A DNA stretch of 16,792 bases, from IMG/VR virus record IMGVR_UViG_2859810971_000005. One strand, given 5' to 3'. Source of the stretch: a virus. Lineage: Duplodnaviria > Heunggongvirae > Uroviricota > Caudoviricetes. Of this stretch, positions 9,461 to 10,212 are shown in pieces (position 1 is the first letter of the stretch; every line of letters begins with the position of its first letter). A program made the position numbers and the translations under genes. Under the pieces are notes generated by a model that ran no database searches, was not told the DNA's origin, and was given only the letters and a program-made list of their open reading frames with translations.

Positions 9461-9622
9461 CTACTCTGCTAATTTGCTCAGCCCCATGTCTGCGTAAGTG
9501 CGATTTACTGCATTTCTCAGGTCTGCGTAGTTCTCCGTTGGCGGCTCCGGTGTGCCCTTGCTGCTCTGTTTTACCAGCGGGTCGCCCACCAGCCGCCCGT
9601 AAGCTGCAATTTGTGCTGTCAT
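9461..9622 (-). CDS. hypothetical small protein (53 aa)
   Basis: ATG at 9620-9622 with GAGGTGG 5 nt upstream; product MTAQIAAYGRLVGDPLVKQSSKGTPEPPTENYADLRNAVNRTYADMGLSKLAE. Below the 60-aa cutoff of the supplied ORF track. Followed by a terminator. Confidence 0.5.
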   Translation of the reverse strand: MTAQIAAYGRLVGDPLVKQSSKGTPEPPTENYADLRNAVNRTYADMGLSKLAE

Positions 9623-9631
9623 ATTGCCACC

Positions 9632-9937
9632 TCAGTGAAGCGATCCGGCATTGTTCTTTTTCATCTCTTCCATCATTTTTTCAGTGAGCATTACGCACTG
9701 AAACCCCATGTTTTTGATGTCTACGGGTTTCATGCCTTTGTCAGTGGATATCACAGGCAGAATATCCTGATACACATCGCGGTCAGGGTAACTAAGCACA
9801 CAAAGCGCCCATGATGCCACGGGTGAGGATCCTTCGTCTGTTTCAACCCACCAGCCTGGTGTAGCTGCGCTTATTTGCAGAATCGTGATCCGTCCGTTGT
9901 GCTTGTAAAATTTTTCACCAAATTTTGGTTCGCTCAT
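9632..9937 (-). CDS. hypothetical protein (101 aa)
   Basis: Start overlaps the stop of the upstream 92-aa gene by 4 nt (ATGA), indicating translational coupling. No recognisable motif. Confidence 0.5.
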   Translation of the reverse strand: MSEPKFGEKFYKHNGRITILQISAATPGWWVETDEGSSPVASWALCVLSYPDRDVYQDILPVISTDKGMKPVDIKNMGFQCVMLTEKMMEEMKKNNAGSLH

Positions 9938-10212
9938 GATTCCACCTCTCCGGTTTTAACGTTGATTGTTGTTACCTGTTCCGCTTCGGCAATCTCCCGC
10001 TCTGTCAGCGTGGCAAAATTTGCCGCCGTCGTGGTCATGAATGCGCTTATCAGTTCGGGATGTGCTTTCGCGTATCCTTCCCCCGCGTGGCGGTCTATCG
10101 TTCTGATTGCCACCTTTAAAGCGTGCTCTGTCATGTCTAACGCGCGATATTTCGGTTCTGTTCTGTCTCTGCGTTTTTTGAATGATTTATTAAATTTCCC
10201 TGAAGTGTGCAT
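9934..10212 (-). CDS. hypothetical protein (92 aa), first gene after the origin
   Basis: ATG at 10210-10212 with GAGGGGG about 9 nt upstream; coupled to the downstream 101-aa gene. No recognisable motif. Confidence 0.5.
   Translation of the reverse strand: MHTSGKFNKSFKKRRDRTEPKYRALDMTEHALKVAIRTIDRHAGEGYAKAHPELISAFMTTTAANFATLTEREIAEAEQVTTINVKTGEVES

Follow-up and report, generated by a model that had tools for sequence, protein, structure and literature searches.

What does a phage satellite keep directly after its replication origin? The locus described here raises this question with three small reading frames, g1, g2 and g3, that lie between the origin and the capsid gene in a stretch of 16,792 nucleotides from the IMG/VR record IMGVR_UViG_2859810971_000005. 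The whole of this stretch is referred to below as the window. A first-pass annotation had assigned none of the three to a replication, packaging or structural family, had regarded all of them as possible payload, and had likened the first two to a toxin-antitoxin pair.

The satellite and the layout of the locus

The host element is a capsid-forming PICI (cf-PICI) of the CP-933C/Sp7/EcCIEDL933 type located between phoQ and roxA. The first gene in the window is phoQ, and the island is colinear both with annotated E. coli elements at this site and with Sp7 of E. coli O157:H7 Sakai. It carries int, an alpA-type regulator and a primase/replicase followed by an origin, in gene-for-gene colinearity with its relatives including Sakai Sp7. 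The packaging genes expected of a cf-PICI are also present (HK97-type capsid, protease, portal, connectors, HNH, TerS and TerL), tail and lysis genes are absent, the island is approximately 15 kb long, and it occupies a dedicated attachment site. Sp7 is the element also named CP-933C and O-island 51 (PMC3378721), and it is the same element as EcCIEDL933, the prototype capsid-forming PICI (bioRxiv 10.1101/2022.09.08.507074).

Several of these genes are pseudogenes in the window. The capsid gene contains a tryptophan codon changed to a stop (TGG to stop, 7967-7969), and terL (2553-4213) is frameshifted. Approximately 91 bp upstream of terS (window ~4527-4533) are absent compared with the related locus L002, a segment that we take to be a possible cos region. 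In addition, an IS1 element is inserted in the early region (12773-13535). Based on these four lesions the island is visibly decaying, and the copy in the window is no longer able to make capsids. The window is ~99.8% identical to an island of Shigella flexneri SFBU1023, in which the IS1 element has no counterpart. A search of genome contigs with the g1 profile also has S. flexneri, with at least one locus, among the matches listed.

Every gene of the island lies on the minus strand, and the three small reading frames were found there where the first-pass annotation had placed them (Table 1). The four-nucleotide overlap that it had described for the first two is seen as ATGA on the coding strand (plus-strand TCAT, 9934-9937), where the stop codon of g1 meets the start codon of g2. 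The strong Shine-Dalgarno sequence reported for the third is GAGGTGG, and g2 has a strong ribosome-binding site of this sequence too. The context GAGGTGGNNNNATG occurs upstream of both g2 (9935-9948, minus) and the g3/ssb start (9620-9633, minus); g1 is preceded by GAGGGGG approximately 11 nt upstream of its ATG. A closely similar sequence, GAGGTGGCAAATG, precedes the g1 homolog ECs1586 in Sakai (L004, ~7093-7106). Repeated ribosome-binding junctions such as these could promote the reshuffling of cassettes that such satellites show.

Table 1. Features of the region between the primase-helicase gene and the capsid gene
Feature	Position	Strand	Remarks
P4-alpha/D5-type primase-helicase gene	10501-12249	minus	origin directly downstream
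Iteron-type replication origin	10256-10487		between the primase/helicase gene and g1
g1	9934-10212	minus	92 aa
g2	9632-9937	minus	101 aa
g3	9461-9622	minus	53 aa
Deletion junction	9548-9552	minus	5-nt microhomology CACCG; ssb codons 24-25 / perC codons 53-54
Intrinsic terminator of g1-g2-g3	9421-9438	minus	7-bp stem with 5 GC pairs, then TTTTTTGCGT
orf74	9095-9319	minus	74 aa; phrog_1957, E=6.3e-40; ECs1589 homolog
Terminator of orf74	9058-9075	minus	identical to the terminator of g1-g2-g3

The genes do follow an origin, as had been proposed. Nine of the ten matches to GGTAGAYA in the window cluster within 10261-10486, in both orientations, compared with 0.47 expected by chance, and families of direct and inverted repeats are also present in the origin interval. 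Their placement before the head module also holds. The capsid gene is downstream, after orf74 and two identical terminators, so that the order past g3 is terminator, orf74, identical terminator, capsid gene, the first terminator lying 22 nt past the g3 stop codon. The 23-nt terminator sequence AAAAAGCCGGATTGCTCCGGCTG (plus strand) flanks orf74 in identical copies (9054-9076 and 9417-9439), which gives this gene the look of a self-contained cassette that separates the operon from the capsid gene. It is kept between perC and the capsid gene in many relatives, shows only weak, sub-threshold similarity to DUF1398, and belongs to the same accessory block as g1, g2 and g3. No Rfam RNA family was found in the window.

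Two further annotations in this region deserve mention. In L002 a 37-aa RefSeq coding sequence labelled 'trigger factor' (9361-9474, equivalent to window ~9360-9473) spans the terminator and the g3 stop codon, and is almost certainly spurious. Further upstream, the window encodes a 99-aa DUF4222 protein (12246-12545, minus) whose stop codon overlaps the start of the primase gene. Based on an RGD tripeptide at residues 20-22 this protein is a homolog of RgdR (ECs1581), a published CP-933C activator of type III secretion. RgdR was considered as a candidate for one of the three small genes and rejected, since it corresponds to this DUF4222 gene.

The third reading frame and the loss of ssb

The third reading frame had been described as belonging to no recognisable family. 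However, g3 matches the C-terminus of PerC and the N-terminus of the satellite single-stranded DNA-binding protein. The match to PerC (PF06069; 22.9 bits against a cut-off of 22.6, E=1e-4) aligns residues 21-49 of g3 with profile positions 50-77 of 90, and the N-terminus of g3 has a weak match to an SSB PHROG. In intact relatives g2 is followed by a 136-aa ssb and then by an 82-aa PerC-family gene. We aligned g3 with two of these relatives (L001 and L130). Compared with L130, the closest intact allele, 508 bp have been lost in the window between two copies of CACCG, and the last 29 residues of g3 are the same as those that end the 82-aa PerC-family protein in the intact sister islands. These alignments show that g3 consists of SSB residues 1-25 joined in frame to PerC/PchE residues 54-82, with no gene family of its own, and the idea that it is an uncharacterised payload gene is replaced by that of a deletion remnant of ssb and perC/pchE. 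At the equivalent position in O157 the PerC gene is pchE.

Little of either parent is left. Only residues 1-25 of the 136 SSB residues are retained, and g3 contains neither a complete OB fold nor the acidic/IPF C-terminal tip (the SSB of intact relatives ends in DDPYGDGIPF). A full-length PerC domain is likewise not present, as residues 1-53 of the 82-aa relative are deleted (relatives are 82-90 aa long). With the OB fold and the first 53 PerC residues gone g3 is most likely inert. PGAP labels the same reading frame in one relative as a 'PerC family transcriptional regulator'. The first-pass annotation had named homology to ordinary replication accessory proteins as an argument against its payload idea; such homology, to SSB, was found for g3 only. 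The contiguous deletion junction occurs in 3 of 5426 complete E. coli genomes. It is also found in L002, L003, L027 and L076, with an S. flexneri locus and two IMG/VR contigs among the carriers.

A second, independent in-frame fusion of ssb to perC, with other breakpoints, is present in two loci (L021, 4316-4576; L095, 4582-4842). Here SSB residues 1-12 are joined to PerC at 'ETDKER' through RLV/QLV microhomology. In other loci ssb is frameshifted, truncated or internally deleted (L087, L081, L040 and L079). The satellites have thus lost ssb repeatedly. A ProQ/FinO-domain protein replaces or joins SSB just ahead of the PerC-family gene in several satellites of Salmonella and E. coli (L010-L012, L015 and L018), and the middle position of the operon is thus taken by some kind of nucleic-acid-binding protein.

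Two satellite-restricted protein families

The first gene, g1, belongs to the ECs1586 family and is the first cistron of a pchE-type operon. It matches the function-unknown phrog_1231 over its full length (E=2.9e-51, profile positions 3-83 of 83), and it is the first gene after the satellite origin and upstream of ssb, although in the window g2 lies between g1 and the truncated ssb. No match was found in Pfam, NCBIfam or PADLOC. In Sakai the stop codon of ECs1586 overlaps the ssb start by 4 nt, and pchE follows. We counted 2144 occurrences of g1 DNA, spread over 1613 of the 5426 E. coli genomes, so that approximately 30% of complete E. coli genomes carry it. A protein search returned 166 clusters, and where the source is named it is E. 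coli, Shigella or Citrobacter.

The genomic context of g1 is consistent. In each of 80 IMG/VR loci with g1, the gene follows a replicase and an origin gap of 180-360 bp, and the next gene is typically ssb (69 loci), with g2 in 8 and perC in 2. The g1 core accompanies three types of replicase (RepA, D5-primase and DUF927). This core (...EGYAKAHPELISAFMTTAAANFATLTEREIAEAEQVTTINVK...) is almost invariant, with dN/dS of 0.06-0.30, while the basic N-terminus is variable. The protein consists of a basic N-terminal tail (+6.6) and an acidic two-helix core, and AF2 predicts two long helices (pLDDT 61). The arrangement KYRALDM / helix / G-x / helix looked suggestive of a ribbon-helix-helix protein. This candidate was not supported in a weak test, in which hhalign against a small ribbon-helix-helix alignment gave a probability of 0.07.

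The second gene, g2, is a sporadic, optional insert between g1 and ssb, found in 82 of the 5426 E. coli genomes. It matches the function-unknown phrog_27268 over its full length (E=7.6e-70) and nothing else, Pfam, NCBIfam and PADLOC giving no match. An exhaustive HMMER scan of 1.84 billion representatives found just 7 relatives, and a profile search extended the family to 63 clusters with hosts in Morganellaceae, Salmonella, Klebsiella, Serratia, Providencia, Xenorhabdus, Proteus and Citrobacter. Membership in this wider Enterobacterales family is evident from the conserved motif GWW...SPxAxWALC...LPV...GMxP, all four elements of which are found in g2. Across 45 sequences of the family the columns W29, W30, W43, A44, C46 and P61 are invariant. 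The subfamily in the window has a divergent helical C-terminus. We confidently predict that g2 folds as a small beta-rich barrel, SH3/Tudor-like, with no solved relative.

Outside the g1-bearing satellites, the relatives of g2 are the first gene after the replicase and origin, and g1 is absent. In Morganellaceae cf-PICIs the g2-like gene is followed by a 65-aa reading frame and then by the capsid gene. The genes that come next are ProQ/FinO and PerC in PICIs of Salmonella and E. coli, and small reading frames and a lambda-E-type capsid gene in Klebsiella satellites. No PerC or other domain was found in the small reading frames that follow the g2-like genes in the Morganellaceae and Klebsiella satellites. 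Two loci depart from the usual arrangement. One E. coli element (L018) reads g1 (frameshifted and partial), g2 (intact), ssb, proQ, perC, and in L038 a g2-like gene is located before g1, in reversed order.

Both genes are genuine coding genes under purifying selection, based on the dN/dS values given above for g1 and on a value of 0.29 at a dS of 0.80 for g2. The failure of the first-pass annotation to recognise a replication, packaging or structural family in either of them was borne out, as each hits only its function-unknown PHROG. The remote-homology and structure checks that it had suggested returned the two-helix model for g1 and the beta-rich barrel for g2, and a PDB sequence search was empty for both g1 and g2. 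The g2 profile did give a hit to TAL effectors in the PDB (E=1e-16), in which no single stretch passed; it is an artefact, because the short LPVL..G..P motif adds up over tandem repeats. Rpp proteins were also considered as an identity for g1 or g2 and rejected: RppA, RppB and RppC are 144-153 aa long and have solved structures, and the PDB search had returned none of them. Neither g1 nor g2 is encoded in any of 50,697 phage records, and in 72,556 plasmid records g1 matches five and g2 one. Both families are restricted to chromosomal satellites.

Operon context and possible roles

In our view the interval probably represents the promoter-proximal end of the 'pchE operon' of the satellite. This operon is an accessory transcription unit located directly after the origin. 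Among 111 IMG/VR loci the architecture is replicase (RepA, D5-type primase or DUF927), origin, (g1), (g2), (ssb), (proQ), (perC), (orf74) and capsid gene, brackets marking genes that may be missing. The intact relatives have the order g1, optionally g2, ssb, perC/pchE and terminator. In this unit g1 is a conserved leader gene that is almost always translationally coupled to the satellite's own ssb, and g2 a separate optional cassette dropped between them, whose family fills the first position after the origin by itself in other Enterobacterales satellites. The reading frame g3 is what is left of ssb and pchE after the 508-bp microhomology-mediated deletion, and the Shigella-type copy of the unit has lost both of its annotated effectors.

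The closest described counterpart is the ECs1586-ECs1587(ssb)-pchE operon of Sp7/CP-933C/O-island 51 in O157:H7, in the same type of island at the same site. The two share the order replicase, origin, g1 homolog, ssb, PerC-family gene, ECs1589 homolog and capsid gene, and the g1 core is ~90% identical at the DNA level. Unlike Sp7, the window has the extra g2, lacks the greater part of ssb and codons 1-53 of pchE, and has a different replicase, different iterons and a different g1 N-terminus. The transcription data concern this O157 homolog only. In O157:H7 strain PA20 a polycistronic ECs1586-ECs1587-pchE RNA was mapped by RNA-seq and 5' RACE, with its 5' end at a G located 10 nt upstream of ECs1586, in bacteria grown on HEp-2 monolayers with no prophage-inducing agent; promoter activity of the operon dropped under an SOS-inducing drug (PMC7369912). 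Due to the differences in replicase, iterons and g1 N-terminus, the mapped promoter is not conserved in the window. Expression of the g1 unit here is something that we infer, since homology to Sp7 and to L001 starts only within the 5' end of g1 (~10180-10188) and no consensus promoter was found for the unit in the window.

The roles of the two proteins can be suggested only tentatively. It is possible that g1 works with SSB on satellite DNA, or that it autoregulates the unit via its basic N-terminal arm. Similarly, g2 might serve as an accessory add-on whose tryptophan-rich beta-barrel binds a partner, either a protein or a nucleic acid. In distribution g1 resembles a semi-core gene, conserved and linked to ssb, and the g2 family of other lineages resembles a leader gene with a fixed position.

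The leading regions of plasmids offer a partial parallel. There, ssb is flanked by small establishment or anti-defence genes such as psiB and ardA, and the likeness consists in an SSB encoded by a mobile element and co-transcribed with small, acidic, uncharacterised proteins. However, g1 and g2 are essentially absent from the plasmid records. Additionally, satellites enter cells as double-stranded DNA, so a role in protecting incoming single-stranded DNA is not directly transferable.

A rather improbable alternative is that g2, and possibly g1, is satellite payload against other phages or the helper, serving in anti-phage defence, anti-defence or helper interference and expressed from the resident island. 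The first-pass annotation had regarded the position as a payload slot, and the region after pri and the origin is indeed an accessory, variable region in the PICI literature, although g3 is not payload. [quoted passage not shown] The sporadic occurrence of g2, the confinement of both families to satellites and the transcription of the O157 homolog operon without induction are consistent with such cargo. Like Tai-type accessory genes, g1 and g2 have no hits in defence-finder libraries. However, PADLOC-DB v2 gave zero families at E<=1 for g1, g2, g3 and orf74. In a comparison of Tai/Ati limited to size and location, TaiEcA is 26 kDa compared with 10-11 kDa for g1 and g2. Furthermore, nearly all satellites of this lineage have g1 and its sequence is strongly conserved, unlike variable defence cargo such as that of the Tai site, and the fixed first-after-origin position of the g2 family across genera looks more like a semi-core function.

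It is unlikely that g1 and g2 are replication accessory proteins that cooperate with SSB and the primase/helicase at the neighbouring origin, for example in loading, in priming or in the protection of single strands. Their fixed position right after the replicase and origin in every locus examined, the translational coupling of g1 to ssb, and the basic arm of g1, which could contact nucleic acid, all point in this direction. However, one g1 core occurs with three unrelated replicase types and different iterons, and g1 therefore does not track the initiator. Replication is induction-dependent, whereas the O157 operon is transcribed from a start of its own in uninduced cells, with lower promoter activity under an SOS-inducing drug. 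The repeated loss of ssb from resident islands also argues against this role, and the study of Alqurainy et al. (preprint) did not mutate these genes.

That g3 is a functional mini-PerC, a selected in-frame peptide with an SSB leader and a PerC tail that modulates host gene expression, is very unlikely. The reading frame is in frame and keeps the strong ribosome-binding site and start codon of ssb, the second fusion is likewise in frame, and it is the retained segment that gives the PF06069 score. However, that match is barely at the cut-off, only 28-29 of the 82 PerC residues are left, few genomes have the allele (3 of 5426 in E. coli), and two in-frame events would occur by chance approximately 1 time in 9. 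The loss of ssb elsewhere by frameshift, truncation and internal deletion indicates plain decay. PerC-family genes are common in Gram-negative PICIs (PMC11773190). The likeness of g3 to the PerC/Pch regulators (PerC of EPEC, PchA-E of EHEC and EcCIMP1_025) lies in its C-terminal 29 residues; unlike these regulators, g3 lacks the N-terminal two-thirds and has an SSB-derived leader, and so is a remnant and not a functional member.

The weakest alternative is the comparison made in the first-pass annotation, in which the translationally coupled g1 and g2 would be a type II toxin-antitoxin-like pair with an upstream antitoxin and a downstream toxin; the likeness to such operons (ccdAB geometry) is that of two small overlapping genes on a mobile element, and the reading is extremely improbable, as the two do not pair obligately (1613 and 82 E. 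coli genomes), g2 follows g1 in only 8 of 80 loci against 69 for ssb, some satellites of Morganellaceae, Salmonella, Klebsiella and E. coli have relatives of g2 but no g1, the order is not fixed (L038), g2 is intact beside a frameshifted g1 in L018 where a toxin would be expected to persist only with its antitoxin, and no toxin fold or family or antitoxin DNA-binding domain was detected in either. Distribution, gene order and pseudogene evidence led us to reject the pair, and neither gene is likely to be a toxin or an antitoxin.

These findings correct the view of the locus: of the three 'genes' one has turned out to be a pseudogene remnant, and the coupled pair is very probably not a toxin-antitoxin system. 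They place g1 in an operon already mapped in E. coli O157, the one that provides PchE, a virulence-linked regulator. Two satellite-restricted families of proteins that come first after the origin in many Enterobacterales PICIs are also defined, and the recurring loss of ssb from the satellites, with two in-frame fusions to perC, adds a modest but definite observation on the decay of such islands. Both g1 and g2 are cheap, well-delimited targets for studying how a resident satellite acts on its host and helper. More speculatively, and with considerable doubt on our part, the two families may be satellite-specific 'leader' proteins of an operon that is expressed during residence and always sited right behind the origin of Enterobacterales PICIs, new effectors that tune the host, helper exploitation or competing phages. 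The barrel of g2 would then dock on a host or helper component, for example RNA polymerase or SSB, and g1 would modulate SSB-dependent processes. If so, a resident satellite would use the contacts made by g1 and g2 to tune host physiology, the exploitation of its helper, or competing phages.
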